55,372 nt of DNA from a virus (IMGVR_UViG_3300027978_000009:1-55372); one strand, 5' to 3'. Positions 19,449 to 45,605 are shown, counted from the first letter of the stretch. The notes: generated by a model not told the origin, from the letters alone. Numbers and translations: made by a program.

Positions 19449-19701
19449 AGGCTGGCTCTTTCACGAGTGGGGTACCGATGGCAAGTGCGTACGCTGTCCC
19501 GCTATCGGTTTCCGGGGAACCCAGAACGCCGCGACATTGGCGGGCGACCTGTCCCACGCTGTAGTGCCCTTGCGAGTCCACCCTGCTGGTCTTGCTGCCC
19601 GACACGATTCCCCGGTGGCCCACCGGCTCCGGCTGGTCCCGGTACACCCCGACGAGGACGATCCATCATTCTCCTCTTCTGCAGATGACCCTGCATGCTA
19701 G
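19429..19701 (+). CDS. putative small Cys/His protein overlapping the convergent gene
   Basis: CAGGAG RBS 6 nt before ATG 19429. MDIRCARGWLFHEWGTDGKCVRC (C..H..CxxC). Confidence 0.45.
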   Translation: MDIRCARGWLFHEWGTDGKCVRCPAIGFRGTQNAATLAGDLSHAVVPLRVHPAGLAARHDSPVAHRLRLVPVHPDEDDPSFSSSADDPAC

Positions 19702-21361
19702 GCGGAATCCTGGGACCACCTGTAAAACCTTCGTTCGGATCTTCACCACCACCCGCGTAAGGATTCGCACGTATAGGCATCGTCCTGCCCATAGGTCTCG
19801 GACGCATCATAGGCTTGCCCGGTCCACCGGTCGTCTGCTGGATAGGACCTCCCGGCATAGGTGGACGAGGCGGCATCATGCGTCCCGGCGGAGCCATCGC
19901 AGCGAGGCCACCAACAGCGTAGTTAACTCGACCACCACGTGACTGCTCCATCTCTTCCAGCTCCCGCTCGGTGCGAGTTTCGGACGCTTCCTTGTTGCCC
20001 ATCAACTTCTCAAGCCAGCTGAGTTCTTCTGGCTCCGCAGCTGGAGGAGGAGGTGGCGCAGGATCCTGATGATGCTTGCGCTCCCACATCTTGTAGCGAG
20101 CACTATCTACAGGGTACGGGTTGGCACCTTCAGCGTGACCGGGCCTAACCTCACCACCCTCAGCGTAACCACCTAGCATTTCTTTGATGCGTGCGTTGTG
20201 ATCGGCGAGTTGCTGTGAGTACCGAGACTCTCTGGCCGGTGACGGAGGTAACATCACTGGAGGGGGAGCACCACCTGCAGGAGGATCCAATGGATCACCC
20301 GTTATCGGATCAATTCCTGGTGGGATAACTCTGGGCGGAGGCGTACGACCACCACCACCACCACCGCGACCTCCACCACCTCCACGCCCGCCTCTGCCTC
20401 CACCACGTCCACCGCGACGGGGACCTCGCATGACAGGTACCTGATCGTACGACCCCTCACTGGTGTCGGTGGCTTCTATGCCTGTTGGCTCACGCATGTA
20501 GATGAGTTCCGTGTTCGGGTCCTTGATGTAAGTCCCGTCCTCCAATCCACGCACGATGCGAAAGACACCACCGATGCCACCGTCCAGATGTTTGACAAGC
20601 TCCTTGAACGTGTAGCCTCCGTCCACGGAGCCACCGTTCGCATAACCTCTGTCGGCATTCATGAATTCTCTTCCTACTGCTTGCGATGGACCTCCGCCTC
20701 CCGGCTTCTTCCAGCCATGTGCAGCAGCTCGCATTAGTCGTGCTTGTGCTGGTGATTTACTAGGCATCATCCTTCCCTTGTTTGTCATTTGTGCGAGACC
20801 ACCTTGAGCTAAGGTCCTCACTTGAGGCACGTAGAGTCCACTCGGTGCTGCAACATACGACGTGTCGATGTCGATTACATCTTCAAGTGGATCAAGTTCT
20901 TCGTCAGCTGCAGACGCGCCTGCACCGACTACTCCAGCAGCAGCCCCTTGTGAAATAGGTACGCTTGCAGGTGCAGCTGCGGCACCCGCACCACCGGCAT
21001 ACCAAGATGCAATCGCAGCAGCCACCTGATGAGCACCGGCACTCGGACTAACATCAATTCCCTTTTCAGCAGCGTCAGCGTAAGACCCTGACGACGGACC
21101 CCCCAGCTGATTTTGTATGGGCTCGTAATCTTTCCCGACAATTTCACCCCACATCTTCGAACTGAAGGGCTCCAAAGCACCAATGAACGCACGTTCAGGG
21201 TCAGCTCTGAGTGCGTCCCACATGTACTTCAGGTTGTTCTTCTCGAACGCCAGCATGTCATCCAGCCCCATCTTCTTAGCTGCACGACTAAGCTCCTTCT
21301 TGGTCTTCTTCTGGTGACCAAAAGGATCATGTACTTTCTTTAGAAAACTGCCAATGCCCAT
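19502..21361 (-). CDS. 619-aa low-complexity virion-associated/ejected protein (RGG box, poly-Pro, repeated YAxGG motifs)
   Basis: Long ORF at the end of the late operon. Start overlaps the upstream stop. Confidence 0.75.
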   Translation of the reverse strand: MGIGSFLKKVHDPFGHQKKTKKELSRAAKKMGLDDMLAFEKNNLKYMWDALRADPERAFIGALEPFSSKMWGEIVGKDYEPIQNQLGGPSSGSYADAAEKGIDVSPSAGAHQVAAAIASWYAGGAGAAAAPASVPISQGAAAGVVGAGASAADEELDPLEDVIDIDTSYVAAPSGLYVPQVRTLAQGGLAQMTNKGRMMPSKSPAQARLMRAAAHGWKKPGGGGPSQAVGREFMNADRGYANGGSVDGGYTFKELVKHLDGGIGGVFRIVRGLEDGTYIKDPNTELIYMREPTGIEATDTSEGSYDQVPVMRGPRRGGRGGGRGGRGGGGGRGGGGGGRTPPPRVIPPGIDPITGDPLDPPAGGAPPPVMLPPSPARESRYSQQLADHNARIKEMLGGYAEGGEVRPGHAEGANPYPVDSARYKMWERKHHQDPAPPPPPAAEPEELSWLEKLMGNKEASETRTERELEEMEQSRGGRVNYAVGGLAAMAPPGRMMPPRPPMPGGPIQQTTGGPGKPMMRPRPMGRTMPIRANPYAGGGEDPNEGFTGGPRIPPSMQGHLQKRRMMDRPRRGVPGPAGAGGPPGNRVGQQDQQGGLARALQRGTGRPPMSRRSGFPGNR

Positions 21362-21936
21362 TACTCTTCCACCTCTCCGGTGCGACCGTCGATGGTCACG
21401 TTGTCGGACTTTGGTTTGATCAATGCAAGGATACTGGACATGACTTCCATCTTAGTCTCGTCACGAATACCTATGGGAGATAGATCGTCTTTACCCGACA
21501 CGTTGTTGTGCTGACGATCCTTCCAGTTTTCTTTCTGCCTGTTCGTTAGCCACAACTTGATGGCTGCAACGTCAGGCTTGTAATGTTTGGTTGTCTCGGC
21601 GCGTACGATCTCACCGTCCCACTGGAAGATCTTTTCTTCGTCGTGTTGGTAACCAACTGCACTCTGGTACAACGCAGCAAGCACTGCAGCATCTGCATCG
21701 GTGTAGCCTGCTTCGAGTGCGTCTTTGAACAAGGGGTACTGCGCTTTCCACCTGCCCATCTGTCGGGCACTGATGTCGAAGATGTCACACATCTGTGACT
21801 CGGGGATACCTCGCATTGCAATCGCACGTACCTGTTCGAGATGATCAGGCAAGAAGAGACGATGCCCTTCAGCACGCAGAGCGCCCGCTTGATTGCGGAC
21901 GTACTTCTTCCTTCTTACGATTCGTTTAGCTGGCAT
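21361..21936 (-). CDS. terminase small subunit-like HTH protein
   Basis: A.RG....CDIFDIS......WK...P.F..AL..G...AD..V...LY..A.GY....K...PD..A...WL.NR...W.D, a pattern typical of a TerS-like family. Confidence 0.8.
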   Translation of the reverse strand: MPAKRIVRRKKYVRNQAGALRAEGHRLFLPDHLEQVRAIAMRGIPESQMCDIFDISARQMGRWKAQYPLFKDALEAGYTDADAAVLAALYQSAVGYQHDEEKIFQWDGEIVRAETTKHYKPDVAAIKLWLTNRQKENWKDRQHNNVSGKDDLSPIGIRDETKMEVMSSILALIKPKSDNVTIDGRTGEVEE

Positions 21937-24485
21937 TACTCTTCGGGCTCCTCGTCACCACCCATGCCCAACATCTGCATGAGTCGATCTGTTAGTCCAA
22001 GCTCTTCACCTTCCGCCCCGGCCTCCATACCAGTGGCATTTCTCAGCTGCTGCATAGTCTGATCCATGACGCCACCCTGCCCAGAGCCCTCTTGAATCTC
22101 GGCCCACTCGTCGGACACGTACACAGTATCCTGGGGATCATCTGCAAACCACTCCTGACCTTGCTGTCGTCCCAGACCCATGAGCACGCCGGTCAGCTCT
22201 TTCATGACAGCGTCCTTCATGCGCGGGTCACTCTTCACATGATACAGGCGGAGCAAAAGGTTACGTGCGGGTTGACTCTGATAGGCGTGACCAAGCAGGC
22301 CTGCGACACCCAGAGTAACCAAGTTCACTGCACTGGCACCTATCTGACCGATGCCACCTGAAGCAGCCATGCCGACACCCTTGCCGGTCTCTCCTGCTGC
22401 AGCTGTCATGCGGAGGTACTCCAGCATGCCACCCAGTTCTTGTTGTGCTCTCTCGCCCGGAAAGAAGGTGCGCAGCTGAGCTTCAACAGGCTCACTCTCC
22501 ATCCAGTTCAAAACTTTCTTCGGATCTACGACAGCCTCGATGGCTTCGCTTCGACGCCAGCCACCAACACGCATTGCATTACGCAGGATCATTTGCTGAG
22601 CTTGCCGTCTACCTGACGCAGTTAAATTCTCTCGGAGAAGGGTAAGCTGTGTAGGATCCGCTGACTTCAACACACGTCGGATGACTTGGTCGTCAACCTC
22701 ACCGGCCTCGATCAAACCCTGCAACGTACGTCGTTCGGAACCGCTGACCAGAGTGTTTATCTCTCGGGTTCCTTGCAGCCATCGAGCACCTGCTTCACCA
22801 CCATCTTCAGCAGCGTGCCGTGCAAGATCTCGTTGCAATGCATCTGCTGCCTGCTCTATAGATTCCCGTGCAGCTGGAGGTGCTCTGCCAGCTTCCATGT
22901 AAAGGCGTTCAACCCAATCGTTGAGGCTACCGAAGTCACGTGGAAGTTTTCCTGGCTGTGGTTTGCCGCCGACCCACACTGTCGTGCGTACTTTGTTGAG
23001 CAAGCTGATGAGACTCTGGTTAGCAAGGTCACCGTACTTCTCTTCGTCTGCGATGATGTCTCGAATCGTTAGACGGAAGTCACGCAAGACAACGTCGTTG
23101 CCTGCCATCGCTTCGATGCCTTCATCAACACTGGCACGAGCAGCGTTCAAACGTGCGCCACCTGCTTGGTTGATGTTGTCCAAAACTCGAGCACCGTAGT
23201 TGGTGTTCGGATTCAAATTATAACGATCAGCCAAGTTAGCCAGCACTTCAACACGCTGTTGCTGCTGTGCTTTACGCAATCCACCAGTACCTGTCAGTGG
23301 CATACGCTCGACCATCTTCAAAAGGATCTGACGGAACGGAGTGTGTGCTTCCGGGACTGCGTCCTGCGTGGTGATGATTGCATTACGACCAGACTGCAGG
23401 TACTCCTTCGCGTTCTTTGCAAAGGTCAACATCTGTGCCTTGGCTGCAGGAATCGCTTGGTCAAGACCAGTTGCTGCACCCATGCGTGCACCCCAATCCT
23501 CAGGGATGTAACTGCCGATGAATCGACCAGTACGTTGCACGGCACCCATCAATGGACGTGCCAGTTCGATAACAGGACCTGCGGCTGCACTGATTGCAAC
23601 GTCAGTCTTGTCGAACTGCCCACCTGCTGCTTCTTGCCCTGCTTGGATTGCCGCTTCGGTAGCGCCCGCTGTTGTGGCACCAACTGCGATACGACCAGCG
23701 GTGCCTGTCATGGCACCAGTAGCTCGACCTGCTGGCGTGAACATCGCACCAACACCCAAGGCTTGCGCAGCATCCATCGCGCTCATGCCCGGACGATTGA
23801 TAACTGCTCTCGCACCGTTGATGTTGTTGTTCATGATGACTGTGCCATCAGGCGCGTGCGTCATACCAAACTGCGGCCACTTACGCTCGCCCGTTTCCGG
23901 ATCCACCTGCAGTAGCATCTGTGCAACCTCGGACGGATCAAACATGGTCAGTGCCGCTGCTGATATCAGTGCTGCGTCTTTGCCAGACAACCCTGCACCC
24001 ATGCCGGAGCCATAACGCTTGGTCGTCTCACCGTGCTCCGCCATGTCTTTGAGTTCCATCATCAAACCCGTGCGCTCAAAGAAAGTAAGGTCTGGATTAT
24101 CTAGACGTTTAGATAGCTCCTCGTAGCGAGGATTCATCTCTAACTTGCCCGTGAACATCTCAGGCAATTCTTTCGCTGCACGTGACTCACCGGGCTCCAT
24201 AGGGAAGTCGGTCATCACGTTACCTTGGTTTCGAATGTCATCGAGACTGACACCCCCCAGCTCACCCGTGCGAAGAAGTTCCTGCGCAGCGTCTTGACCT
24301 GTACCAACCGGATCCTGGGCAGCATCACCCAACCAAGTTGCGTCATACGCACGCCCTAGCTCAGCGTCAGGACCTTGTAGAGCCTGCCCTTGCACGACGT
24401 CGCCCCAGTCGTTGTATTGCAACGCTGCAGGAGGAGGTGCTTGTGTTTCAACAACCTCTTCTTCGATGACTTCTTCGTCTGCCAT
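21936..24485 (-). CDS. large internal virion / DNA ejection protein
   Basis: 849 aa, Ala/Gly-rich helical. IN(R)PGMS.MD motif and GA-rich membrane-like segment, as in P22-type DNA transfer proteins. Position after the tail genes. Confidence 0.7.
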   Translation of the reverse strand: MADEEVIEEEVVETQAPPPAALQYNDWGDVVQGQALQGPDAELGRAYDATWLGDAAQDPVGTGQDAAQELLRTGELGGVSLDDIRNQGNVMTDFPMEPGESRAAKELPEMFTGKLEMNPRYEELSKRLDNPDLTFFERTGLMMELKDMAEHGETTKRYGSGMGAGLSGKDAALISAAALTMFDPSEVAQMLLQVDPETGERKWPQFGMTHAPDGTVIMNNNINGARAVINRPGMSAMDAAQALGVGAMFTPAGRATGAMTGTAGRIAVGATTAGATEAAIQAGQEAAGGQFDKTDVAISAAAGPVIELARPLMGAVQRTGRFIGSYIPEDWGARMGAATGLDQAIPAAKAQMLTFAKNAKEYLQSGRNAIITTQDAVPEAHTPFRQILLKMVERMPLTGTGGLRKAQQQQRVEVLANLADRYNLNPNTNYGARVLDNINQAGGARLNAARASVDEGIEAMAGNDVVLRDFRLTIRDIIADEEKYGDLANQSLISLLNKVRTTVWVGGKPQPGKLPRDFGSLNDWVERLYMEAGRAPPAARESIEQAADALQRDLARHAAEDGGEAGARWLQGTREINTLVSGSERRTLQGLIEAGEVDDQVIRRVLKSADPTQLTLLRENLTASGRRQAQQMILRNAMRVGGWRRSEAIEAVVDPKKVLNWMESEPVEAQLRTFFPGERAQQELGGMLEYLRMTAAAGETGKGVGMAASGGIGQIGASAVNLVTLGVAGLLGHAYQSQPARNLLLRLYHVKSDPRMKDAVMKELTGVLMGLGRQQGQEWFADDPQDTVYVSDEWAEIQEGSGQGGVMDQTMQQLRNATGMEAGAEGEELGLTDRLMQMLGMGGDEEPEE

Positions 24486-25786
24486 TACTCGTCCTCAGGC
24501 TCGGGAGCTTTCACTTGGTAAGGAGATCCCCACTCACCGACACGGTAATACTTTGTGCCGGGTTCTAATTTGTCACGATCTGCTTTCGTTTTAACGAAGA
24601 CAGCGTCAGGTGCAAACGGGAATCCAGACACACCTTCCCACAAATCTTCAACCGAACTCATGTACTGACGTCGTCCTGCCGAAGACGTTGTGGTCTGAGC
24701 AGAGTTATAGGCCTCGCGAATACCTCGTGAGAGTGCAGTCGCGTAGATGTCTTCCATCCGTTTCAACTGACGGTAGTTGGTAGTGGTGTTTGTTCCCAGT
24801 CCAACAGAGACACCCTTCATCTCGGCAAGGTCTTTGTCAGATGCAGGACCTTTCAAGTCACGAAGCTTGGCGAGAAAATCTTCCGCGATTAGTTTCTGCA
24901 GGTCAGACAGTTCCGTCGTATCACCGAGGTCCACACCTACCCAGTTAGCAACACGATTCTTGAGTGCTTGGAATCCACTGGTCTCAATTTCGATCTCAGC
25001 ATTTTCCAGGATTCTATTCGCTGCCCGAATGTTGGCGAGCGGAGCCTTACGTTCGTACGCTGCATTGATGAAGTCTTCACTTCTAGCTGTCGTGGACTCT
25101 GCCATTTCAGCTGCGCGAATAAGAGCAGCTGCTCGTGCAGGATCAAGACGTGACGCTGCTTCGAACATCGTGCCATCGGCACCCTTCAAAGGTGTCAACT
25201 TCAGACCTAACTCAGGCGCTTCCGGATCCACCATCATGGATCCAAAGACGATGCGTTGATTCTCGACAGCCTTACCCATGTCATCAGGATGAACCATGGT
25301 CTGGATGGAACCGTGAATGCTCTTGCCCGATGCTGAATTACCAGACAGTTCAAGCATCTTGTCGATGGCTTCACTCTCCATCGCAATCTCAGCGTTCATG
25401 TTGTCTTCGAGTTGCCGGTTGAATTCAGCCTCGTGCTGCCCACGCAGTTCGTTCTCTTGACGTAACAGGCCTGCGCTTCTGCCCATGCCCTCGCCAAAAC
25501 TTCCGGTAGGTCCGGAACTCAGCATGCCCTGCGCGAGAGCAAGCCATCTGGATTGTTCGTCACGCTTAGCTTGTGCAGCTCGTTGCTCGCTGATGCGTTC
25601 ACGACCAACTGCCAAACGATCCAAAGCATTCTGCTTCTGATCCAAGATCATAGAACTCAGACTTTGCCCTGCTGCTGGGTTGGTTGTGCGCTCAACAATA
25701 TCAGCCACGTCGATAGCGGCATCAGGTGTATCCACCTGTTCCTCGACGTCTGTTACTGCTGCTAATCCACCTTGTGGTTCAGCCAT
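24485..25786 (-). CDS. internal virion / ejection protein
   Basis: Helical. LAQGMLS..TGSFGE motif and LKGPASDKDL motif. Confidence 0.65.
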   Translation of the reverse strand: MAEPQGGLAAVTDVEEQVDTPDAAIDVADIVERTTNPAAGQSLSSMILDQKQNALDRLAVGRERISEQRAAQAKRDEQSRWLALAQGMLSSGPTGSFGEGMGRSAGLLRQENELRGQHEAEFNRQLEDNMNAEIAMESEAIDKMLELSGNSASGKSIHGSIQTMVHPDDMGKAVENQRIVFGSMMVDPEAPELGLKLTPLKGADGTMFEAASRLDPARAAALIRAAEMAESTTARSEDFINAAYERKAPLANIRAANRILENAEIEIETSGFQALKNRVANWVGVDLGDTTELSDLQKLIAEDFLAKLRDLKGPASDKDLAEMKGVSVGLGTNTTTNYRQLKRMEDIYATALSRGIREAYNSAQTTTSSAGRRQYMSSVEDLWEGVSGFPFAPDAVFVKTKADRDKLEPGTKYYRVGEWGSPYQVKAPEPEDE

Positions 25787-25790
25787 TTTC

Positions 25791-27056
25791 TCAGTCCTGT
25801 TTGTGATCCAATTTCAAAAGCTTGCCACCACCTACACCAAGGGTCCGTGCAAAGTCAGGATATAACGAGCGCGCCCATGCACTAAGCGCGCCCGTTGCCC
25901 GTTTTCCCATACCCACTAGCTTTGCTCCCGCCGCACGGGCGAGTCCTCCTAGTCCGAACTCCTGTTCGGGTATGTAATAGTCGTACTCGGTCTCGTCTTC
26001 GACGTAGCCACCGTTGGCATACTTGTTAGGTTCGATGTAACCACCTTCAGCTTCGGTCAGTCCACGGTACGTTCCGTAAGCACCCACGATCTGCGACAGT
26101 GGAGATGGACCGTAAGATTCTGCCGGTCCCGTGTCCGTGCGATCAGTCACTCGGGTGTAGGGCAAACCTCGAATCATCTGGTTCATGAAACCGAGTCGGT
26201 CGAACGGCAAGTCACGCTGCTCGATGAAGTCGTTGTACGCAGTGTCGAGACTCCGCTGATTCAGATCTTGCTGCTGCCGACCGATGCCTTCGAGTGCTGC
26301 TGCGTCGGTGTAACCCATGCGTTGAGATTCTGAACCCAGTCTGCCCATGCCTTCTGCACCTGCGTACAGACCTTGTGCCTCAGCTTCGGCAAGTGCACCA
26401 CGCATGCGGCCCAGCTCGCTGTAACGACCACGCTCTGCTTCGTAGCCCGTGCGAGCATTCTCGTAAGCTCCGCCCAGTGTTGCCAGCTGCTGACCTTGCA
26501 ATCCTTCAGCGATGTCGCGGAAGCCTCTGGTACCGATGTCTTGCATCGAGCCTCGACCACCACGAGATCCGTACGTGCCTGCCGACGTGAACATTCCCTG
26601 GAGTTCAGGGATGTACGTGTCCCGGAGATGCCTGCCAGACTCTTCTGCCTGACGCGCCATCACCTGTTCCATGTACGGGTTCATGTACTGACCGGCCACA
26701 CCGGGATCAGAGAAGCTACCCTCGGCCTGCGTCAGGTAAGGATCCGCTGCCGACTGGATGTTACCAGCCGCCTCCAGACCTCCCTGATAGCCCGACGCTG
26801 CTGCACCCATGTAAGGTTGCCACGAGCCTACGTTCTCCTGAGCTAGGCCAAATGCGTCCTGCTGATCCTCAGTGAAGCCAGCGATCCTGGGTCCACCGTA
26901 GGGGATGTACGGCTCCGCTGCCGCTGAGTTGGCTCTTGCGAGCAGACCCTGCGTGTAGTCGGACATCCATTTTGGGATCCCCTCGACGGTCTGCCCGTAA
27001 GTCGTAACCGACTGTGGGATTGTGCCCTCGAAGAGAAAGTTAGTAGTGCTCGGCAT
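25791..27056 (-). CDS. internal virion / ejection (DNA pilot-like) protein
   Basis: PY.PYGGPRIAGFT..Q, YMNPY..QV, GT(Y)GSR, Gln-rich, LD.AY.DF..Q. Confidence 0.7.
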   Translation of the reverse strand: MPSTTNFLFEGTIPQSVTTYGQTVEGIPKWMSDYTQGLLARANSAAAEPYIPYGGPRIAGFTEDQQDAFGLAQENVGSWQPYMGAAASGYQGGLEAAGNIQSAADPYLTQAEGSFSDPGVAGQYMNPYMEQVMARQAEESGRHLRDTYIPELQGMFTSAGTYGSRGGRGSMQDIGTRGFRDIAEGLQGQQLATLGGAYENARTGYEAERGRYSELGRMRGALAEAEAQGLYAGAEGMGRLGSESQRMGYTDAAALEGIGRQQQDLNQRSLDTAYNDFIEQRDLPFDRLGFMNQMIRGLPYTRVTDRTDTGPAESYGPSPLSQIVGAYGTYRGLTEAEGGYIEPNKYANGGYVEDETEYDYYIPEQEFGLGGLARAAGAKLVGMGKRATGALSAWARSLYPDFARTLGVGGGKLLKLDHKQD

Positions 27057-28954: not shown

Positions 28955-28958
28955 GGTC

Positions 28959-29222
28959 CTACCCCGAAAAGTTTGATGTCGCGAAGAGACGGTCTGCCCA
29001 CTCTCGCCAGTTGTCGTAGTCGCGTGGATCTGGAGCGTCCTGACCCAAGGGGTCTACGCCTCCGAAGATACCTTCTGCCCAGTCCTGCCATTTGTCAGGA
29101 TCATCTAAGCGTTCGTAGTTCTGTTCCGTGCCGTTGGTAGGGTCTGACAAGAAACCCAGCGCCCCGGTCATGACGTCTGCCCACTCGATTACATTCGTGA
29201 AGCCATCCGGATTCAGGATCAT
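28959..29222 (-). CDS. Trp-rich hypothetical virion protein
   Basis: WAD...WQDWA...PDP..Y.NWREWA. Start overlaps the upstream stop. Confidence 0.75.
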   Translation of the reverse strand: MILNPDGFTNVIEWADVMTGALGFLSDPTNGTEQNYERLDDPDKWQDWAEGIFGGVDPLGQDAPDPRDYDNWREWADRLFATSNFSG

Positions 29223-30781: not shown

Positions 30782-33081
30782 CAGACACCTATCTCAATTG
30801 GACTAACCGTCATCCAACTACCACGCATACGACTCACAGTATCTAGCTGACTCACTGTTGGCCTCCACCGGAATCCGAAGGTGCCTGTAGCACTCATTCG
30901 GAACCGACCTGTGATGCGCACCATGACTTCTTCAGATGCTCCACCGAGAGTAATGGCAGAATTCGTAGTCTTGTCATCAGCAGCACCGTTACCTGCTGGG
31001 GCACCGTCTTCTGTGTCGTAGTCAAAGAGGTAATTACATTCTGAAATGTTAGCATCAGAATCGAAATCAAATTCGATGTTGGCTGTGCCTCCGGTGCGAC
31101 GGAAGTAAGCAAAGATCTCAAACTTCCAATAGCCTTGCCGACAAGGTCTGCCACTAAACAGACGGTTATCATCAGCCATCGTGTTAGTCAGGCTTCGGTC
31201 ATCCTGCAAGCCACCCGTCATCATGTGATCTGTGTAGGTAAGGATTCGCTCGTTCGCACCGGTACCTGTCGTGTTGTTGTTGAGCAGAGCGCCACCGCTA
31301 GTACCCTCATAAGGATACGGAGCACCAGATACCGGAGCAGTTCTCAGTACGCCAACACCCCCGTAGTGGACCCAAACTTCACCTGCAGCAGCAAACCCTT
31401 TGACGTAAGTTCTGACGAAGGCTCCAGTCCCCTGAACGACATCATTGATTTCCATGTCGCCAGTGCCTGCCTCGATCTGTATCGCAACACCACCATTGAA
31501 GTTCATCAATGCAAACTGATGTGTGACCGCAGCGTTCTCATAAACGAAGATGTCTTCGCCACCACCGATGATGAAGTTCGTGCCGTCAAAGTCCATCGTG
31601 ACATCTGTACCGGTGCCGAATTGAATCTGTTCGTTGTCAAGCAGGACTACAGGGATGGGCGTGGTGATCGTGATCGTCTTCGTTGCACCTGCACCTGAGG
31701 CTACGACACCAGAACCAACAAAGTTTAGCGTGCCACCCAGGTTTGCAAGAGGTACGCCTTCATCTTCCACGAAGACACCTGCAATGGTTGCGATAGGCGT
31801 CTTACGCATCGCACCCGCATCGTCGTCGTAGAAAGCGATGGTGTCTGCAACCACATCGACAGTCAGCTCGGTCGTCAGGTTGTCAGTGTCCAGCACAAGA
31901 GGTCGGTTAGCAGTGAGATCACCACCACCGCTCAGACCAGAGAGTGCAGCTGTCTGAATTTCAATTGCACTCGCCGCTGCTCCGAGATTTAAAAGGGCAT
32001 TCGGCGCAGTTGTCGCACTAGTACCACCTTGTGCGATGAGAACCGGAAGAGCAATCGCTGCAGTGTTAACCGCATTGATAACGTCAACCGCATCGCAATA
32101 AAAGATGACAGTGTCACCTTGATTCACAGTCGGGGGACCTACTTGAGCAGCCGTCGAAATGGCGAGGGTGAATGCGCCAGTTGTTTGGTTGTCTACCCAA
32201 TACTGCTGGGTGGTATTTGGCACGACAATGCGCCGATTGCCTGTCAGGGCACCCGTAAAGCGGTAAGCGATACGGTTCAGGTTTGCACCTGAAAGAACGA
32301 AGTCACCAGAACCTGGGACTGGAAGCGACACAAAGTCGAATGCAATCGTCGAGGCTACGGTGAGTCCGATGGTGAAAAAGTTAACCCCATCCGTGAAGAT
32401 GAATGTGCTGCCACCGGGGTCCAGGTTGATGTCTGCAGCGCCATCAATGAGGCCTGCAGGTGGAACGATATTCAGTGTTCCGGAACCAGAGTTCCGAAGC
32501 ATGAAGAACCAATCGTTACCGACAGCACCTGCACCGGGGAGGTTGCAAGTACCGGCACCAGCAGTGTAGATCTGACACGACGCTCGATCACCATCAACGA
32601 TAGTGAAAGGAGTAGCAGCCTGCACGTCAGAATCGATTTTCTGGTTAAGCAGAACACCGATTGCTTTGATACCAGCACCAGCCAGAGCTGACGCAGATGC
32701 AACTGCTACCGATGCACCCAACTGGAACGTAGACCACGTGCCTGCGTCCGTGGTGTTGTCGGTCAGACTAAGAACCCACTGCTCACCGGGCTGCACCGTT
32801 TGAATCGTGCCACCAGTAATGTCACGCACGAGATAGGCATTCGCACCCACGTTGTTGAACGTGACTTTGTTACCTGTCGATGCGATCTGTGCATCAGGCA
32901 TGTCGATGGTGAGCCCAACAGCCGTGGCATCGACATCAATGATATCGGCAACGACGTTCTGCCCTGTGATTTGCTGTTCGGTCGGCCACTGCAACGCGAC
33001 ATCAACTGCTGTCTGCAACATGAGGTAGCTAACTCGGGACGGAAAGATTAAGTTCCCGCCAAAGACGTCGGTATATGACAT
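30781..33081 (-). CDS. tail/fibre protein
   Basis: Beta-rich. FTGALTGNR.IVVP...Y.V.N.TTG.F.L, IAQGGT.ATTA..A..NLG and GLSGGGDLTANR fibre motifs. Confidence 0.8.
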   Translation of the reverse strand: MSYTDVFGGNLIFPSRVSYLMLQTAVDVALQWPTEQQITGQNVVADIIDVDATAVGLTIDMPDAQIASTGNKVTFNNVGANAYLVRDITGGTIQTVQPGEQWVLSLTDNTTDAGTWSTFQLGASVAVASASALAGAGIKAIGVLLNQKIDSDVQAATPFTIVDGDRASCQIYTAGAGTCNLPGAGAVGNDWFFMLRNSGSGTLNIVPPAGLIDGAADINLDPGGSTFIFTDGVNFFTIGLTVASTIAFDFVSLPVPGSGDFVLSGANLNRIAYRFTGALTGNRRIVVPNTTQQYWVDNQTTGAFTLAISTAAQVGPPTVNQGDTVIFYCDAVDVINAVNTAAIALPVLIAQGGTSATTAPNALLNLGAAASAIEIQTAALSGLSGGGDLTANRPLVLDTDNLTTELTVDVVADTIAFYDDDAGAMRKTPIATIAGVFVEDEGVPLANLGGTLNFVGSGVVASGAGATKTITITTPIPVVLLDNEQIQFGTGTDVTMDFDGTNFIIGGGEDIFVYENAAVTHQFALMNFNGGVAIQIEAGTGDMEINDVVQGTGAFVRTYVKGFAAAGEVWVHYGGVGVLRTAPVSGAPYPYEGTSGGALLNNNTTGTGANERILTYTDHMMTGGLQDDRSLTNTMADDNRLFSGRPCRQGYWKFEIFAYFRRTGGTANIEFDFDSDANISECNYLFDYDTEDGAPAGNGAADDKTTNSAITLGGASEEVMVRITGRFRMSATGTFGFRWRPTVSQLDTVSRMRGSWMTVSPIEIGV

Positions 33082-33725
33082 CAGACGTTCTCCCTCGTTA
33101 CGTTTCTATCAATGATGCGCTGCAGATCCTGCTGCTGCAGAGTCTCCAAGTCCCTGTCGTAAATTGCCTGCCACGTCGGGATGCGTTCATCGTTCTTTAA
33201 AAATGGAGTTGCCTGCAACAGCGCACCATGAAGAAGGGCGTTCGGGGCAAAGTCCGTCGTCCAGTTCGTTTGATTTACTGCGTCTAACAGAGCAGGCAAC
33301 TCCCAATAGTTAACCTCGAATGGGTAAGCAAAATCTGCTGAAGGTCCTATCAACCAGTTGTAATAATCGTAGTCCGCGTAAAACTTAGGCTGTGCAGTCA
33401 GGTCCTCATCAGGCCAATAGCGCCGGATGTATTCGTAAGAGCGAGCGAACAAAGGCGTGCGTACCTGTGTCACTCCCACACCGAAGTTGATCGAGATCGT
33501 TTTGCGCCATCGATCAGGCTTCGGTATGACTGACTGCCCAATTGCCATGGTGTCCGTGACATTCTGAACGAAACCGAGGATCTTTAACTCGTTCGCCAGT
33601 TGTCGCTCAGCAAGATTGATCAAGCTGGGCAGCTGCTCGAACACAGTAGTGTCCACAACCGTGCCTCGCTCCAAGTACGCACGGAGATCTTTAAGAAGCG
33701 AGTTGTATGTCATCGAGACAGCCAT
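33081..33725 (-). CDS. head-tail adaptor-like protein
   Basis: MTY.SL..D...YLER...I.LAE..L..EL, P.FYA, TNW.T..AP..LL.G.L..A.PFLKNDER...W. Confidence 0.75.
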   Translation of the reverse strand: MAVSMTYNSLLKDLRAYLERGTVVDTTVFEQLPSLINLAERQLANELKILGFVQNVTDTMAIGQSVIPKPDRWRKTISINFGVGVTQVRTPLFARSYEYIRRYWPDEDLTAQPKFYADYDYYNWLIGPSADFAYPFEVNYWELPALLDAVNQTNWTTDFAPNALLHGALLQATPFLKNDERIPTWQAIYDRDLETLQQQDLQRIIDRNVTRENV

Positions 33726-33735
33726 GGCTTATTCC

Positions 33736-34185
33736 TTACTGAGGAGGTTCTACAACCGGATCATCGTCATCCGGCAATGTGTCAACCGCAGGTGTTGGTT
33801 CCGGCTCGGGAGTCGGTTCTGGTTCTGGCTCTGGTTCTGGTGTTGGCTCGGGCTCTGGCTCGGGAGTGGGCTCTGGTTCTTCTTCCGCCAGTAGCTCATC
33901 CTTCGCAGCCTGCAAACGTGCATGCGCGTCGTCCGATCTACCTCGCAAGATGTCCCACTCATCCGGTGTCGGTTCACGACCCTGCTTCGCCATCGCTTCG
34001 ATGGTTTCAGTAAATTCTTTCAGGTCGTCGTACGCATCATCACCCTGTTCGAGCAGAGTGCCCAGAATGCCCAGCAACTCGGACGCTTGATCGAGGCGCA
34101 CGCTACTGCCACCTCCCAGTGCGGGGTTAGCCATCACTGTTCGTAGTCCGCTGACTGCCAGCAAAATCATTTCAACAATACCCAT
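33736..34185 (-). CDS. hypothetical protein with (EP)n/TP repeat tail, in the lysis cluster
   Basis: Hydrophobic N-terminus and C-terminal EPEPTPEPEPEPTP repeats. Confidence 0.75.
   Translation of the reverse strand: MGIVEMILLAVSGLRTVMANPALGGGSSVRLDQASELLGILGTLLEQGDDAYDDLKEFTETIEAMAKQGREPTPDEWDILRGRSDDAHARLQAAKDELLAEEEPEPTPEPEPEPTPEPEPEPEPTPEPEPTPAVDTLPDDDDPVVEPPQ
33790..33882 (-). repeat. tandem EPEPTP-coding repeat
   Basis: Repeated ggctcggg/ggttct hexamers on the + strand. Confidence 0.8.
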
Positions 34186-34186
34186 G

Positions 34187-34597
34187 TTATTCCGTCTCCT
34201 TTATTGTTCTCAGGAGTTCGCTCACTAACGGTGCGAGTCGAGTGACCCAATCATCTAACCTAGTAGAGGCAGTGATCAGTTTGTCTTGACTCGTGTTGCC
34301 AGCTTGGAACTCAGCTTTGACCCGGATGAATTCCACGTACGCTTCAAGGAGACTATCGGCCACCGGTTTGGCCCTCTCCTCTGCTTTTACGATTGCCAGC
34401 TTTGCGTTGCGTGGAATAGTAGGTTGCTCGACCAAGTCCGCTGCCTTCTCCTGGAAGATGACAAACGTACCGTAAGCAGCGTATGCACGTTGCTCACTGG
34501 TTTCTGCAGCCTTGATAGGGTTCGCTGACTGACACCCAGCCAGCGCCGTTAGGCACAGGATCAACCATGCCACTCGGAAATCTAATTGCCGTTTCAT
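34187..34597 (-). CDS. lipoprotein (possible spanin component)
   Basis: Signal peptide ending in lipobox LAG-C. Directly downstream of the holin-like gene. Confidence 0.75.
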   Translation of the reverse strand: MKRQLDFRVAWLILCLTALAGCQSANPIKAAETSEQRAYAAYGTFVIFQEKAADLVEQPTIPRNAKLAIVKAEERAKPVADSLLEAYVEFIRVKAEFQAGNTSQDKLITASTRLDDWVTRLAPLVSELLRTIKETE

Positions 34598-34830
34598 AAA
34601 ACTCCGCCTCCGTCACCGCTTCCGGTGATCTTATTAACAAGTCGGCGCGTTGAGATCGCTTGATAGTCTTTCAAAAAGCTCACCAATGAACCAACCCCCA
34701 GAACGATCCACGGAATCTGACCGATGTCTGAGATGGACTCCACGCCTTCCGTCTGTAGCAACGCAAGCATGCCCGTGAAGAATAAAATCAACGCTGCAAT
34801 GACAGCACCTACGAGAGTATTAAGATTCAT
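34594..34830 (-). CDS. putative holin (2 TM)
   Basis: 78 aa with two hydrophobic helices, adjacent to the endolysin. GGAG RBS before ATG 34830. Confidence 0.65.
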   Translation of the reverse strand: MNLNTLVGAVIAALILFFTGMLALLQTEGVESISDIGQIPWIVLGVGSLVSFLKDYQAISTRRLVNKITGSGDGGGVL

Positions 34831-35619: not shown

Positions 35620-35630
35620 AACCTTATCCC

Positions 35631-35936
35631 TTATGCAGGATCGTCTGCGGGGGCTTCAGCGTTTCCGCTTGCGCTTGCGTCGTCGTTTGCCCCATCGCTT
35701 GGGTTTTCCACGGGAGCAATTGCCGGAGCTGGCGCGTTTCCCAAATTATTTTCCGGCTGTGGCTGTGCGAGCACGACTTCACCGTTCGCTATCGCCTGCA
35801 ACATGCCATCCAGGATTCCGAGTGCGCCAGATTTTGCAACGCTCAACGGGACGGGTAGATCTTCAACCTGCAACAGCTTTACACCTGCCGCTGCAGCCAT
35901 CTGAACTTGTTGTGCTGATACTTCTTGCTTTGCCAT
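35631..35936 (-). CDS. hypothetical protein (possible fibre chaperone)
   Basis: AAGGAG RBS. Follows the fibre genes. Confidence 0.7.
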   Translation of the reverse strand: MAKQEVSAQQVQMAAAAGVKLLQVEDLPVPLSVAKSGALGILDGMLQAIANGEVVLAQPQPENNLGNAPAPAIAPVENPSDGANDDASASGNAEAPADDPA

Positions 35937-35974
35937 TCTTCTTCTCCTTGGTTAGGGCTTTCGCCCACGTAAAC

Positions 35975-36418
35975 TTACGGTGTTGATTCTGCGTTTAGTG
36001 TAGCAGTGGCTGTGTCGATATCCGCACCACCTCCTGCGGGTCGAATATGTATTACTCCAGTAGCTATAAATGTTCCTGCGCCCGTCTCCTCCGCGCCCCA
36101 CACAATAGTTCCTCCCCCATTAACCCAAGACGGGCTGATTGGATCACTCGGACCCCAGTTTGGATTGTTCCCTGTCGTAACCCACTGGAAGTCGTAGTCG
36201 TTCGCATCGAATCCTGAGCCAGTCACCCATGAGCCGATCACACCGTCTGCGCCATTCAGACGTTGAGCCCAAACATCTCCATTAGCACGAATCTGAATCT
36301 CCGCTCGCGCATCACCTGGAAAAAACCCAATGTCGAATATACTGTACGAAGCTTGGTTGAACCCAACCGCGAACGAGGCTTTCTGCGCCATTGCTTGATA
36401 CATTTGCTGAAGTGACAT
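35975..36418 (-). CDS. tail fibre-associated beta-rich protein
   Basis: Start overlaps the fibre stop (TAATG). Confidence 0.7.
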   Translation of the reverse strand: MSLQQMYQAMAQKASFAVGFNQASYSIFDIGFFPGDARAEIQIRANGDVWAQRLNGADGVIGSWVTGSGFDANDYDFQWVTTGNNPNWGPSDPISPSWVNGGGTIVWGAEETGAGTFIATGVIHIRPAGGGADIDTATATLNAESTP

Positions 36419-38469
36419 TAGCTCAGCCCCGCTCCTGCAATCTTCCAAGTAGTAGCACCAACTTTCTGAGCGACAGCATGTCCACCAGCAGCCAGCGTTC
36501 GTGTACCGGTCGAGTTGTCATCTGCGAAGATCAACGTATCCGTTGTGATTGCGATGCTGATGCTGACCGAACCACTATTGTCCCAAGCTAGGAACGTTCC
36601 TATCTGGTATGGGACCGAACCGTTCGCAGGTATCGTCATTGTCTGGGCTGCAGTGCCACCCGTGAAACCTACCGTCTTGCCCTTGTCCGTCAGGATACCT
36701 ACGCGACTGGCGACAACCGAAATGATCTCAGAGATCGATGGATCCAACAGTTGGTTAACGTCAGTGTCATCTCGGAACTCTGGACGACAAGGGGATGCCG
36801 ACCGAACCCAGTACTGTCCGTAACCAGCGTTATTAACTCCGGGTGCTGCCGACTCTTCCAATTGAATGGAGAGTGCGTCCATCGTTACCTTCTCCGTCCC
36901 TCCTGTACCTGCGACAAGAGACACTTGACCATTTGGATTTGAAAGAAGAAGTATTCCAAGAACGTCACCGACAGTGCTCAGAACAGTTCCAACCTGATCA
37001 GTGAAATTTAGACTTACATTCGCAGCAGATCCTGTCGAGTTACCGTCACGCAGATCCAAGCACGCTCCACCGAGACCGTTGTTGATACGGAGTGTGGTTC
37101 CTGTGTAGAAGAGATGAGGTTGACCAGCGAGTGTCGCTCCGGTGCTATCCCAGACAGCTACTTCACCAGAAGCAGGGGTTGGAGTTGCTACGATTCCACC
37201 AGAAGCACTCAGGTCGATATCAACGCCAGTGTCGGTTGTGAACATCGGAGTGTTCGGTGCATCGTTGCGCACCCAGAACTGACCGCGAGCAGTAATGTCT
37301 CCTGCTGCCGCTGCCTTTTCAGTCATGTACATCGAGCCTTGCGGAAGCCAGATGCCTCCCGTTATTGTCTCCATGACATTCAGTGACGATGCACCGTGTT
37401 GCAGCCTTACTGCAACGCCAAACTCGATTTCGATGTTGGCACTATTGAGTCCGCCGATGATCGTATCGGAGCCTGACGTACCCGCACCGTTGATGTTGAC
37501 GAACAGAGTCGAGTTGTAGCTGAATGCGCTGGGCTTCGTCTGAATGTTCTGTCTCGCAAACTGCGTCATGCCCTGAGTACCTATCAGGTTCGCGCCAATA
37601 TTGATCGGGACGTTGAGGTACGGAGTGCCGAGAGATGCCACAGATAAGGAACTGGTCAGGTTGATCGAACCAATGATCAATGGATCCGGGACTGCTCCTG
37701 CCGGAGGGACAGAGTACGCGCCAGTCTCGTCAAGGTAATTAGTAGCTGCTCCCGCTGTTGTAAGCGTAACCCCATCGACGCTGACACCTGTGATCGCGGC
37801 ATCAAGATTAATAGTAGGGTTGACTGGATCCCCAGCGTTGACACTGATGTTCGTACCACCAATGACAGAATCAACTTGACCACCACCCGATGGAGGGACT
37901 GAGTAAGCACCCGTCTCGTCGAGATAGTTAGTTGCGACACCTCCCGAGGTAAGTACAACTCCGTTCGTCGGAGAATTGTAAGCACCCGTCTCATTGAGGT
38001 AGTCGGTAGCAAGCCCTCCGGTATTGAGAACTACACCATTGACCGTCATGCCTGTGATTGCAGCAGGCATATTGACGATGGGGTTTATAGGATCCGTAGC
38101 ATCGACGTCGATGTTCAAACCACCGACGACTGAGTCCACTTGTCCACTTCCTGACGGCACAGAGTAGACACCCGTCTCATTAAGAAAGGCAGTTGCCGCT
38201 CCCCCATCGTTCAGAGTTACACCGTTGACACTCAATCCTGCGATTGCCACCGGCATGTTGACGATTGGGTTGAGTGGGTCCGTGTTATCGACGTTAATGT
38301 TCACGCCTGAGTTGACAGAGATAACGCTGCCGCCAATGCCCAAGTCAGACGCTGAAACTTTTCGGCTTACTTGTAGGCCACCCTCAACTGCCTGCGACTC
38401 GAAGAACGTTGTTGCTGGATCAAGCGGCAAAGTAATCGGTGCCATGTCGGAGATTGTGAAGTTACTCAT
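36418..38469 (-). CDS. tail fibre protein with internal repeats
   Basis: N-terminal TISDM anchor-like segment, VDSVxGG.NI.V..TDP.NP repeats, and C-terminal TIPAN.SVPY.IGT...K...TTW...G domain. Confidence 0.85.
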   Translation of the reverse strand: MSNFTISDMAPITLPLDPATTFFESQAVEGGLQVSRKVSASDLGIGGSVISVNSGVNINVDNTDPLNPIVNMPVAIAGLSVNGVTLNDGGAATAFLNETGVYSVPSGSGQVDSVVGGLNIDVDATDPINPIVNMPAAITGMTVNGVVLNTGGLATDYLNETGAYNSPTNGVVLTSGGVATNYLDETGAYSVPPSGGGQVDSVIGGTNISVNAGDPVNPTINLDAAITGVSVDGVTLTTAGAATNYLDETGAYSVPPAGAVPDPLIIGSINLTSSLSVASLGTPYLNVPINIGANLIGTQGMTQFARQNIQTKPSAFSYNSTLFVNINGAGTSGSDTIIGGLNSANIEIEFGVAVRLQHGASSLNVMETITGGIWLPQGSMYMTEKAAAAGDITARGQFWVRNDAPNTPMFTTDTGVDIDLSASGGIVATPTPASGEVAVWDSTGATLAGQPHLFYTGTTLRINNGLGGACLDLRDGNSTGSAANVSLNFTDQVGTVLSTVGDVLGILLLSNPNGQVSLVAGTGGTEKVTMDALSIQLEESAAPGVNNAGYGQYWVRSASPCRPEFRDDTDVNQLLDPSISEIISVVASRVGILTDKGKTVGFTGGTAAQTMTIPANGSVPYQIGTFLAWDNSGSVSISIAITTDTLIFADDNSTGTRTLAAGGHAVAQKVGATTWKIAGAGLS
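37700..38325 (-). repeat. three and a half ~63-aa repeats within the fibre
   Basis: SV..G.NI.V...DP.NP..N...AI.G..V.GV.L..GG.AT.(F/Y)L.ETG.YSVP. ETG(V/A)Y occurs four times. Confidence 0.85.
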
Positions 38470-38828
38470 TAGGGCAAGTCCTCATTGAATAGCACTGTCG
38501 CGCCTTCGAACACGCGAAGGTCTCCACCAGCTGTCACGCGTGGATTGCCTCCAACTGTTGCACGCACACCAGCCAACTGCGTCGTGTTAGGGATAGGTCC
38601 TCCCGGAGTCAGATCCTGGTCGGGACGATAGAAAGGTAACGTGATGCGATCCGGTTGACGAGGTGGCAGACGATACGGATCGTACTCATCCAAATCATCG
38701 ATGCACACTTTCAGCCCCGGACTATTCGGGTCCGAGTACAACTCGCTCAAGAACATTTTCTTCTGGCACCGGGCACAGACGCCCAGTCCGAAGGTTGATT
38801 GTCCTGTTGGGTTTAAGAAAATCGGCAT
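38469..38828 (-). CDS. Cys-containing virion-morphogenesis protein
   Basis: GVCARC...EL..DP..PGL.VC..D.D.YDP...RPD. Confidence 0.75.
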   Translation of the reverse strand: MPIFLNPTGQSTFGLGVCARCQKKMFLSELYSDPNSPGLKVCIDDLDEYDPYRLPPRQPDRITLPFYRPDQDLTPGGPIPNTTQLAGVRATVGGNPRVTAGGDLRVFEGATVLFNEDLP

Positions 38829-38830
38829 AG

Positions 38831-39889: not shown

Positions 39890-39979
39890 CTATCTTCCTC
39901 CGCGTACCCGACTGCCCCGACCACCGCGAGGACGCTGATTGTGACCGCGAGGGTGAGGAGTCTTGATGTGCTTATCCAT
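39890..39979 (-). CDS. 29-aa Arg/Gly-rich micro-protein
   Basis: GGAGG RBS. MDKHIKTPHPRGHNQRPRGGRGSRVRGGR; its stop abuts the next ATG. Confidence 0.55.
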   Translation of the reverse strand: MDKHIKTPHPRGHNQRPRGGRGSRVRGGR

Positions 39980-40002
39980 GACGTCCTCCGCCACTCGCGT
40001 TG

Positions 40003-40599
40003 CTATTTTTTTACGCTGCCACCTCGGGCTTTATTTACTGTGCCCCCGCAAGCTTTCACGTTTTTCGGCATGCCCTTCTTCGAAGCAGCGGTGCCTGCCT
40101 TCTCAGGCTTCTTCAGCACAGTCTTCTTACGCAACGCCTGCTTGGCTTTTTTGAGAGCTGCATCAGCCAGTGCACCACCACCACTTGAAGCAACTCCACG
40201 AATGGAATGCACCTTGCCACCCTTCTTGTAACCGGCCTTCATACGCTTGGTGCCACCGGCCTCAATCTCGGCTTGGTTGCAACCCTTACGTGCAGGCATG
40301 TTGCCGTGGTCCATGGTGGCTTGTGGACCACGCGCTGTAGGCATGCCCATCTTCTTGACCTGACCACCACGCTTGAAGCCCAACGTCATGCCGTCGTCGT
40401 AAAGCTTGCTGTGCATGTCACGACCGTCACGCATTGTCGTGCCACCCTTCGCTTTCTTCACAGGCGCTTTCTTAACTGCACCACCGCGCATGTAGCCTTT
40501 CACTTCGTTCCGACCGGCGGAACCAGAAAAGCCTTGTGCAGATGGGAAGGAAAAATCCTTCACGTAAGTCAGTCCTGCAGGTGTAGTTACTTTACTCAT
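40003..40599 (-). CDS. Lys-rich low-complexity protein with six xxGGxV motifs
   Basis: YMRGGAV, KAKGGTT, FKRGGQV, YKKGGKV, KACGGTV, KARGGSV. Confidence 0.8.
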   Translation of the reverse strand: MSKVTTPAGLTYVKDFSFPSAQGFSGSAGRNEVKGYMRGGAVKKAPVKKAKGGTTMRDGRDMHSKLYDDGMTLGFKRGGQVKKMGMPTARGPQATMDHGNMPARKGCNQAEIEAGGTKRMKAGYKKGGKVHSIRGVASSGGGALADAALKKAKQALRKKTVLKKPEKAGTAASKKGMPKNVKACGGTVNKARGGSVKK

Positions 40600-45524: not shown

Positions 45525-45562
45525 TATCTTTCTCCGAGTGAGACGTCGCTGCGCCTCGGGTG

Positions 45563-45595: not shown

Positions 45596-45605
45596 GCTAC
45601 AGATC

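Follow-up and report, generated by a model that had tools for sequence, protein, structure and literature searches.

A conserved Gly-Gly linear motif common to five otherwise unrelated virion-module proteins of a short-tailed phage: a candidate docking peptide

Among the components of tailed phages, none are less well understood than the ejection and tape-measure proteins, which are mostly invisible in cryo-electron microscopy (cryo-EM) maps. In T4, the capsid-targeting sequence is a short peptide common to unrelated cargo proteins, present as a single N-terminal leader and removed by the phage prohead protease. The protease sites of adenovirus and African swine fever virus (ASFV) have a Gly-Gly (GG) core and are found sometimes in basic core-like proteins. 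Here, we have analysed a short GG motif that recurs in five proteins (gpA, gpC, gpD, gpE and gpF) encoded by the IMG/VR virus record IMGVR_UViG_3300027978_000009 (55,372 bases, estimated completeness 96%), this whole stretch being referred to below as the window. The original prediction on this DNA had read the motif either as a capsid-loading signal of the T4 kind or as a GG cleavage site of the adenovirus/ASFV kind. All the repeats are copies of a single conserved short linear motif, with positions kept and copy number variable, and our data support the view that it is a real, selected feature common to otherwise unrelated virion-module proteins.

The P22 ejection proteins gp7, gp20 and gp16 are similarly acidic, Gln/Gly-rich and partly disordered, and their cassette adjoins tail genes. 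The Anabaena cyanopodophage A4 is described in PMC12002296 as having a four-protein pre-ejectosome, with its genes downstream of the adaptor and nozzle genes. It is like the cassette of the window in its four ejection genes and in the idea of an interlocked cargo bundle, but unlike it in having no motif. In the window, gpB and gpD match the ejection-protein families phrog_770 and phrog_4287 and the region is syntenic with Caulobacter phage GB2A; the Caulobacter phages GB2A, RW, RLK and KcrB have an identical gene order in the ejection-cassette region. Based on these family matches and on the gene order shared with cultured phages, the window therefore belongs to a short-tailed phage with a P22-like ejection-protein cassette. 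The genes gpA to gpF and their relevant parts are listed below (aa, amino acids; pI, isoelectric point).

19502-21361, minus strand: gpA, 619 aa, Gly/Pro/Arg-rich, basic (pI 9.5)
19571-20812, minus strand: span of the gpA motif instances (aa 184-597)
20345-20428, minus strand: eukaryote-style RGG box of gpA, RRGGRGGGRGGRGGGGGRGGGGGGR, followed by a proline-rich stretch (aa 312-339)
21936-24485, minus strand: gpB, 849 aa, P22-gp20-like "DNA transfer" ejection protein (phrog_770, E = 4e-24)
24485-25786, minus strand: gpC, 433 aa, acidic
25760-25780, minus strand: N-terminal motif of gpC, PQGGLAAV, its only copy
25791-27056, minus strand: gpD, 421 aa, with a "DNA ejection protein" family core at aa 34-339 (phrog_4287, E = 1e-10)
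25929-26060, minus strand: acidic C-terminal tail of gpD with EAEGGYI, YANGGYV and FGLGGLA
27056-28954, minus strand: gpE, 632 aa, ejection protein resembling the end of a tape-measure protein
27059-27373, minus strand: conserved C-terminal module of gpE (aa 528-632), AMGGYQEGG ... GTGRSDDIPARLSDGEYVIDAESVALLGDGSG ... KGGFSHKAK ... YMSGGG
28349-28456, minus strand: hydrophobic Gly-rich stretch of gpE (aa 167-202, Kyte-Doolittle scan), likely a membrane segment
28664-28906, minus strand: N-terminal motif array of gpE (aa 17-97), VKGGLAAM, about 60 aa, YCYGGPV and FAKGGHV
40003-40599, minus strand: gpF, 198 aa, very basic (pI 10.6), situated amid fibre-like genes

The strings on which the original prediction was built were all present in the translations and GG contexts of the genes concerned, all of them on the minus strand. 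The motif was located between modules, as had been proposed, and also at the termini of the proteins. The gpA protein, which is probably disordered, carries in order LAQGGLA, YANGGSV, YAEGGEV, SRGGRV, YAVGGLA, YAGGG and QQGGLAR. Its RGG box and Tyr-Gly-Gly motifs are reminiscent of low-complexity "sticker" proteins; RGG triplets number one to nine in each gpA orthologue. Six GG sites are found in gpF (GYMRGGAVKK, AKGGTT, GFKRGGQVKK, GYKKGGKV, ACGGTV and ARGGSVKK), the last one being the C-terminus of the protein. In gpE, the C-terminal module is flanked by YQEGG at aa 535 and YMSGG at aa 615. The gpC motif amounts to one weak copy in this phage, and gpB, which serves as an internal negative control, has no copy in the window.

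We have counted the motif over 69 greedily called open reading frames (ORFs) of the whole record. The strict form, [YF]..GG.[VI], occurred eight times (two copies in gpA, one in gpD, two in gpE and three in gpF) and in no other ORF; the original prediction had noticed no such clustering in capsid, portal or replication proteins. The GGLA form occurred seven times, with three copies in gpA and one each in gpC, gpD, gpE and the fibre-like ORF 36418-38469. When the five proteins were subjected to 5000 composition-preserving shuffles, no shuffle equalled the observed numbers (8 vs. 0.21 expected for the strict form, 13 vs. 2.9 for [YF]..GG, 6 vs. 0.42 for GGLA and 19 vs. 3.3 for either form combined). 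The "about 20" copies initially reported are a figure that depends on how loosely the motif is defined. In a second control (n = 5000), all Gly residues were kept in place and only the remaining ones were shuffled; again, the observed counts were never equalled for [YF]..GG (13 vs. 3.7), the strict form (8 vs. 0.29) or GGLA (6 vs. 0.52), which means that glycine richness (8-17% Gly in the five proteins) does not explain these patterns. The looser GG.[VI] gave a weaker result (13 vs. 5.5, equalled in 5 of the 5000 shuffles).

The regular expressions were written after viewing the data and hold-out tests were therefore added. A weight matrix derived solely from 149 gpE-type representatives from other sources, with the threshold set to one false match per shuffled proteome, scored seven matches in the window (gpA, three; gpE, one; gpF, three). 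The matches in gpA and gpF are cross-family and, therefore, the two motif flavours are one motif. It has the consensus (G)-[Y>M,L,F]-[A/Q]-x-G-G-[L/Y/x]-[A/V/I]. Among 346 distinct instances, the first conserved position was occupied by Y (50%), M (19%), L (18%) or F (13%) and the next one by A (27%) or Q (25%), whereas after GG the +1 position was L (24%) or Y (9%) and the +2 position A (32%) or V (25%). As claimed from the start, the five proteins are otherwise mutually dissimilar, the best pairwise BLASTP E-value being 0.38. The motif windows of gpF have a mean net charge of +3.1 and those of gpD one of -1.1; DNA binding by the motif was dropped as an explanation, given the acidic gpD copies. 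Neither DNA repeats nor a Chi-like GGTGG word was retained as a cause at the DNA level: the 17 motif instances differ in their codons, with a mean nucleotide identity of 0.51 between pairs, and GGT is simply the commonest Gly codon (49%).

Conservation of the motif was studied in 45 related viral loci that were found with gpD as query and whose ORFs were assigned to the window genes by BLASTP. The identities of the gpA, gpC and gpD orthologues were only about 30-55%. The observed/expected counts were the following:

gpA, 29 orthologues: [YF]..GG.[VI] 37/1.5; GGLA 61/2.4
gpC, 35 orthologues: [YF]..GG.[VI] 17/0.7; GGLA 23/1.1
gpD, 41 orthologues: [YF]..GG.[VI] 21/2.3; GGLA 29/3.3
gpE, 44 orthologues: [YF]..GG.[VI] 53/2.9; GGLA 41/7.7
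gpB, 32 orthologues: [YF]..GG.[VI] 1/1.0; GGLA 2/2.3 (not enriched)
Tail protein 29219-30781 (about 10-12% Gly), 43 orthologues: [YF]..GG.[VI] 2/2.6; GGLA 0/0.8
Tail protein 30781-33081 (about 10-12% Gly), 46 orthologues: [YF]..GG.[VI] 3/4.2; GGLA 0/3.3
ORFs not assigned, 336: [YF]..GG.[VI] 5/2.0; GGLA 3/2.5

The gpA orthologues kept the motif order, with about six copies in series, the last one being MQDQQGGLARA. In most of the gpC orthologues listed, [RQ]x[YF]QxGGLAxV was found within aa 6-24, and three of them had four to six copies in an N-terminal extension. The gpD orthologues end with AEGGYI .. YA[DE]GGY[VA] .. [YF]x[LI]GGLAxA, comprising two to four copies spaced by 8-16 residues, and the 44 gpE orthologues kept the positions of GGLAQM, about 60 residues, RLYxxGGxV and AKGGxV. 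A total of 149 gpF homologues were found at E <= 0.01. The alignment of 32 of these sequences revealed invariant G39 G40 V42, G78 G79 V81, G115 G116 and G127 G128, with linkers varying in length by up to tens of residues and with extra motif copies inside them. Across homologues, the copy number ranged from one to six and the arrays had a spacing of 8-16 residues, with positions kept. Thus, the expectation that motif positions would be conserved while linkers diverge was confirmed both in the 45 related loci and in the 32 aligned gpF homologues. The gpF gene is missing from two complete, motif-poor relatives, Caulobacter phage GB2A and the distant relative G001. The latter has five strict copies vs. 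1.1 expected, and these are hosted by different proteins, of 1395 and 830 aa, and by a 64-aa ORF with YSFAKGGKIKP (ORFs 30526-34713 and 45471-45665). In the Caulobacter phages GB2A and RW, two copies are present in the gpE homologue.

The last 105 residues or so of gpE are strongly conserved in alignment (G.GTGRSDDIPARLSDGEYVIDAE.VALLGDGSG..GA.RLDEMR..LRKHK..NL.KG.FSHKAK.P..YM.). The core of this module spans about 80 residues (GxGTGRSDxIPAxLSDGEYV...) and is bracketed by motif copies. The module profile matched 17,512 representative protein clusters at E <= 1e-3, 4,748 at <= 1e-10 and 758 at <= 1e-30, and in most matches the module was the extreme C-terminus. For flank and terminus statistics we have used the 150 best representatives, 148 of which have the LSDGEYV-type anchor. 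The representatives contained 312 copies of [YF]..GG vs. 96 expected and 101 of the strict form vs. 8.1 expected. [YFLM]..GG was present 10-45 residues upstream of the anchor in 99/148, 40-75 residues downstream in 110/148 and on both sides in 77/148; the two members of such a flanking pair could therefore clasp one another. Moreover, in 79 of the 150 representatives, [YFLM]xxGG is followed by no more than four residues before the chain ends (e.g., KYLSGGRT).

Several searches connected the module to tape-measure proteins. Five of its six PHROGs matches were tape-measure families (the six had E = 6e-6 to 8.5e-4). The module matched the tape-measure protein gp16 of mycobacteriophage Douge (PDB 8zdo_S) with E = 1.3e-14 over two stretches, both outside the built model, which according to PMC13033339 comprises residues 1658-1699 only. 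A tblastn search with the gpE C-terminus matched 106 phage records, 61 of them from Mycobacterium phages, and among the 30 matches listed, 24 were annotated as tape-measure genes (including, by automatic label, the podovirus homologue in GB2A). The motif precedes the module in the Enterobacter phage Mulvp2 (GFANGGYISGAGTGTSDSIPARLSNGEYV) and in the Rhodococcus phage REQ1 (GFATGGRVDGKGTGTSDDIPARLSRGEHV ... HYASGGPVEW). Like gpE, these siphophage tape-measure proteins have [YF]AxGG[YF].., then G.GTG.SD.IPA.LS.GE[YF]V and a second [YF]AxGG, with a hydrophobic stretch before; the tape-measure proteins of this kind (Douge gp16, REQ1, Mulvp2) are also expelled ahead of the DNA. They differ from gpE, which has 632 aa, belongs to a short-tailed phage and has no ruler region; the spread of the motif over four further proteins is also not seen in tape-measure proteins. 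In Pelagibacter phage HTVC103P, the 431-aa gp79 contains several copies of xTGGLM / xGGF and has the GTGTSDSIPALLSDGEFV module at its end; its gene lies between the portal and capsid genes, that is, a podovirus unit inside the head-gene block.

The module had no name in Pfam (a lenient scan included), NCBIfam or the source record, and a second homologue search with the gpE C-terminus gave 971 proteins at E <= 1e-5, with no named protein among the 120 listed. We have found no paper printing the strings of the module, subscription journals not being covered by the search. Judging from these alignments, the module seems to represent a domain family, as yet without a name, that is common to ejection and tape-measure proteins. 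As far as our searches reach, the motif, the module and the amplification over five proteins are undescribed, while the protein classes themselves are known. Pfam, NCBIfam and PHROGs gave no informative family for gpA, gpC and gpF; the sole family match of gpA was phrog_16759 (aa 199-238), of unknown function. Megablast of 19502-29000 and tblastn of gpF against the phage collection gave no match, the ESM Atlas returned only viral clusters without names for 47155-47739 and gpF, and a PDB search by sequence returned nothing for full-length gpE or the gpF profile. The AlphaFold2 models had a low predicted local distance difference test score (pLDDT), of 54 for gpF and of 56.5 for the gpE C-terminal module, unfolded as a monomer, which fits folding on binding.

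We have also compared the module region with well-studied tape-measure proteins. Lambda gpH has a motif-like FHFATGG where its cut is expected and a later RGYATGGYVG (region 733-790), and its C-terminus is DGGLFSGGGR. The text of PMC12617516 gives residues ~690-817 of gpH as unresolved. T5 pb2 reads AEGGMMYPGVSYQMGEHGTEVV from residue 1128. A hydrophobic stretch precedes the module region in gpE, lambda gpH and T5 pb2. In profile-profile comparisons with hhalign, the module aligned to lambda gpH with E = 0.12 (in the expected register) and to T5 pb2 with E = 0.61, neither being significant. The HK97 tape-measure protein had no motif copy.

Our tentative reading is that the motif serves as a multivalent docking peptide of DNA-conduit proteins, where we infer both the binding and the partner. 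Docking is favoured because position is kept while copy number varies, because copies are found at the free ends of chains predicted to be disordered alone, because two copies bracket the module at fixed distances, because the core is kept in the opposite charge settings of gpF and gpD, and because gpF is missing from the two complete motif-poor relatives. In this lineage, the module-flank element would have multiplied and spread into arrays on the disordered ends and linkers of gpC, gpD and gpE, and also to two further disordered proteins, gpA and gpF. Each copy may form a GG-kinked strand or hairpin with an aromatic anchor, which would dock by strand addition, the acceptor being either another copy or the module. 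Chains with several weak copies could then hold the cargo proteins as a single bundle during packaging, and could also aid their joint exit and re-assembly after ejection. The five motif proteins probably enter the host together with the DNA, and we infer that gpA and gpF are virion cargo. On this reading, the motif would mark those proteins that exit the virion before the DNA and form the conduit across the cell envelope.

Several points weigh against docking and against a general role in DNA conduits. P22 gp16 and gp20 have no [YF]xxGG, no GGLA and no C-terminal module, and gp26 to gp29 of Anabaena phage A-4L each have zero copies of [YF]..GG; on these sequences, the motif is not a general requirement of podoviruses. 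The link to lambda gpH and T5 pb2 is a pattern resemblance only, with homology not established, and must be taken as a lead, not as proof. The orthologue counts from the 45 loci are not independent events, the loci being kin. In the AlphaFold2 model of the gpE C-terminus, the flanking motifs were not paired with confidence. In addition, the mapped cuts in T5 and P22 proteins, detailed below, appear to fit a processing role at least as well.

No peptidase domain was detected with Pfam (34 + 21 ORFs), PHROGs (34 + 5 ORFs) or NCBIfam, scans that a very divergent protease could escape, in keeping with the initial statement that no prohead protease is recognisable. The Pfam scans revealed no adenain or ASFV pS273R-type cysteine protease domain either, and the capsid protein matched fused protease-capsid families over the capsid part only. 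Compared to the adenovirus/ASFV sites, the motif has its hydrophobic position shifted by one (it is conserved at -3 from the first Gly), its post-GG residues are conserved and many copies are at the extreme C-terminus, with 79/150 representatives ending at most four residues past GG. The T4 capsid-targeting sequence also differs, the copies described here being internal, C-terminal and multiple, with only that of gpC being N-terminal, and the motif and module being common to tail-borne tape-measure proteins. With no protease found and many ends two to four residues past GG, an adenovirus-type polyprotein and a T4-type signal are therefore unsupported, and neither of the two original proposals was upheld as first worded.

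Mapped cleavages in other phages lie close to GG. T5 pb2 is cut after R1127, as given in PMC10038345; the sequence past this residue is AEGGMMY, which places the cut two residues before GG in a protein having five GG dipeptides in 1219 aa. As reported in PMC8402733, the host peptidase OpdA removes 20 residues from the N-terminus of P22 gp7, leaving Lys-Gly-Gly-Lys-Gly as the mature end, so that KGG directly follows E20; deletion of the leader still allowed a burst of about 60%. The gp7 leader differs from the motif in having Tyr at -4 instead of -3. Lambda gpH loses a C-terminal piece of ~14 kDa "from the glycine-rich region", and the 2025 account in PMC12617516 states the site and the enzyme to be open. 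A hypothetical gpH cut between F733 and A734 would yield a piece of 12.5 kDa, vs. the ~14 kDa reported.

As T5 pb2 and P22 gp7 are cut just before GG, processing therefore remains a live rival, with the register before GG rather than after. According to this explanation, which we consider doubtful but deserving of attention, a host or other peptidase would cut one or two residues before GG, so that leaders and tails are trimmed and gpA and gpF are chopped into DNA-accompanying peptides. The T5 and P22 cuts, the size of the gpH piece and the presence of the motif in the first 24 residues of gpC orthologues speak for it. However, a cut would achieve little in the 79/150 representatives that end just past GG or in gpF, which ends in GGSVKK; the two mapped registers differ (R before AEGG, E before KGG), the P1 residue being R or E and not the conserved Tyr; residues on both sides of GG are conserved; the scanned ORFs have no peptidase domain; and P22 gp7 tolerates removal of its leader with the burst mentioned above. 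Flexible Gly-rich stretches are also cut easily for trivial reasons, and the T5 and P22 coincidences, spotted after the fact, would keep processing alive as post hoc observations. A capsid-loading tag, in which the motif binds scaffold, portal or the inner capsid wall and recruits cargo into the procapsid, is compatible with the location of the motif at free chain ends, with its absence from capsid, portal and tail proteins and with the recruitment of ejection proteins by the P22 scaffolding protein (PMC8402733). We regard it as quite unlikely, since tape-measure proteins are never inside capsids and yet share the motif and module (Douge gp16, REQ1 and Mulvp2, and lambda gpH by resemblance), neither a cleavable N-terminal leader of the T4 kind nor a prohead protease was found in the scans, and gpA and gpF are only putative virion proteins. 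A by-product of Gly-rich low-complexity composition, to which the 8-17% Gly of the five proteins and the mild enrichment of GG.[VI] with Gly fixed (13 vs. 5.5) might point, is extremely improbable: chance origin was rejected by the shuffles (0/5000 reaching the counts, Gly fixed or not), by the orthologue controls, where equally Gly-rich tail proteins had no excess, by the invariant columns in 32 gpF homologues and by the hold-out enrichment in the 150 representatives (101 vs. 8.1).

The motif could instead be purely structural, a turn or strand completing the module fold or an oligomer, with the extra copies being degenerate duplications or flexible hinges without a partner. GG is a classic turn former, the motif lies at fixed distances on either side of the module and the complete relatives G001 and GB2A manage with few copies. 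Against this, gpF and gpA have no module and yet their GG, Tyr and Val positions are invariant or ordered at 35-60% identity, arrays are retained in gpD and gpC orthologues, and a hinge alone needs neither an aromatic at -3 nor A/V at +2, which makes the structural explanation unlikely in our view. Mimicry of the GroES mobile loop, by which the motif would tether long aggregation-prone chains to host GroEL, appears very unlikely. The mobile loop consists of a conserved Gly and three small hydrophobic residues, as described in PMC5649160, and hydrophobics at +1, +2 and +3 were present in only 34 of the 346 distinct motif 13-mers; furthermore, the gpF copies read GG-polar-V-K-K and GB2A has a GroES-like gene with almost no motifs, for which reason co-variation of this gene with the motif was dropped. 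In favour of such a chaperonin handle, the phage encodes a GroES-like protein with the loop TKGGIIVP, the cleaved T5 pb2C starts with AEGGMMY, GroEL is conserved in all host phyla concerned, and the Zweig and Cummings paper on T5 tail-protein cleavage is listed in PMC5649160 among works showing host chaperonin dependence. Finally, [YF]AxGG might be a cross-phylum recognition code. Its reader would be a host factor that is itself conserved, either the chaperonin or an oligopeptidase (e.g., OpdA), and that matures every DNA-conduit protein of long- and short-tailed phages. In the phage of the window the code would have been multiplied, with gpA and gpF acting like polyproteins whose basic, Gly-rich fragments accompany the DNA into the cell. 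We think such a code is improbable.

If true, this code would place the lambda gpH cut, 50 years unmapped, at about F733-A734. Hence, a specific prediction follows for the gpH cleavage site and enzyme, a question called open in 2025 in PMC12617516. The conserved peptide and the unnamed module (>17,000 protein clusters) link ejection and tape-measure proteins and provide a handle for mutagenesis and binding studies.

The late genes of the window are on the minus strand, starting at the large terminase (52713-54305). They continue with a portal-sized ORF, the GroES-like gene, the capsid protein and fibre-like genes, followed by an SU10-type adaptor (Pfam PF24175, E = 2.4e-20), then by tail proteins, among them the nozzle (29219-30781), and by the four-gene cassette gpE-gpD-gpC-gpB; after gpB come a small-terminase-like gene and then gpA. 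Other features of the window are listed below.

21361-21936, minus strand: small-terminase-like gene (phrog_309, E = 6e-38)
33736-34185, minus strand: 149-aa protein whose C-terminal half is a Glu-Pro repeat (EPEPTPEPEPEPEPTPEPEPTP...)
30781-33081 and 41422-43905, minus strand: large fibre-like proteins sharing a 37-residue segment (65% identity, E = 3e-9)
48779-49237, minus strand: GroES-like co-chaperonin (Pfam Cpn10, E = 6e-8), mobile loop TKGGIIVP
10097-12595, plus strand: family A DNA polymerase with a fused N-terminal uracil-DNA-glycosylase-superfamily domain (Pfam UDG, E = 1.4e-22)

The small-terminase-like gene, between the ejection cassette and gpA, is ~31 kb away from the large terminase gene, which is adjoined by ORF 54374-54916, with no family match. 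The GroES-like gene is flanked by the portal-sized ORF and a scaffold-like ORF (47742-48767), and its GB2A homologue has 56% identity. The Glu-Pro repeat protein gene adjoins the adaptor gene, with lysis-like small genes nearby. The 37-residue segment of the two large fibre-like proteins reads VEDEG.P ... TKTITI and, judging by this similarity, is probably a common attachment or exchange module.

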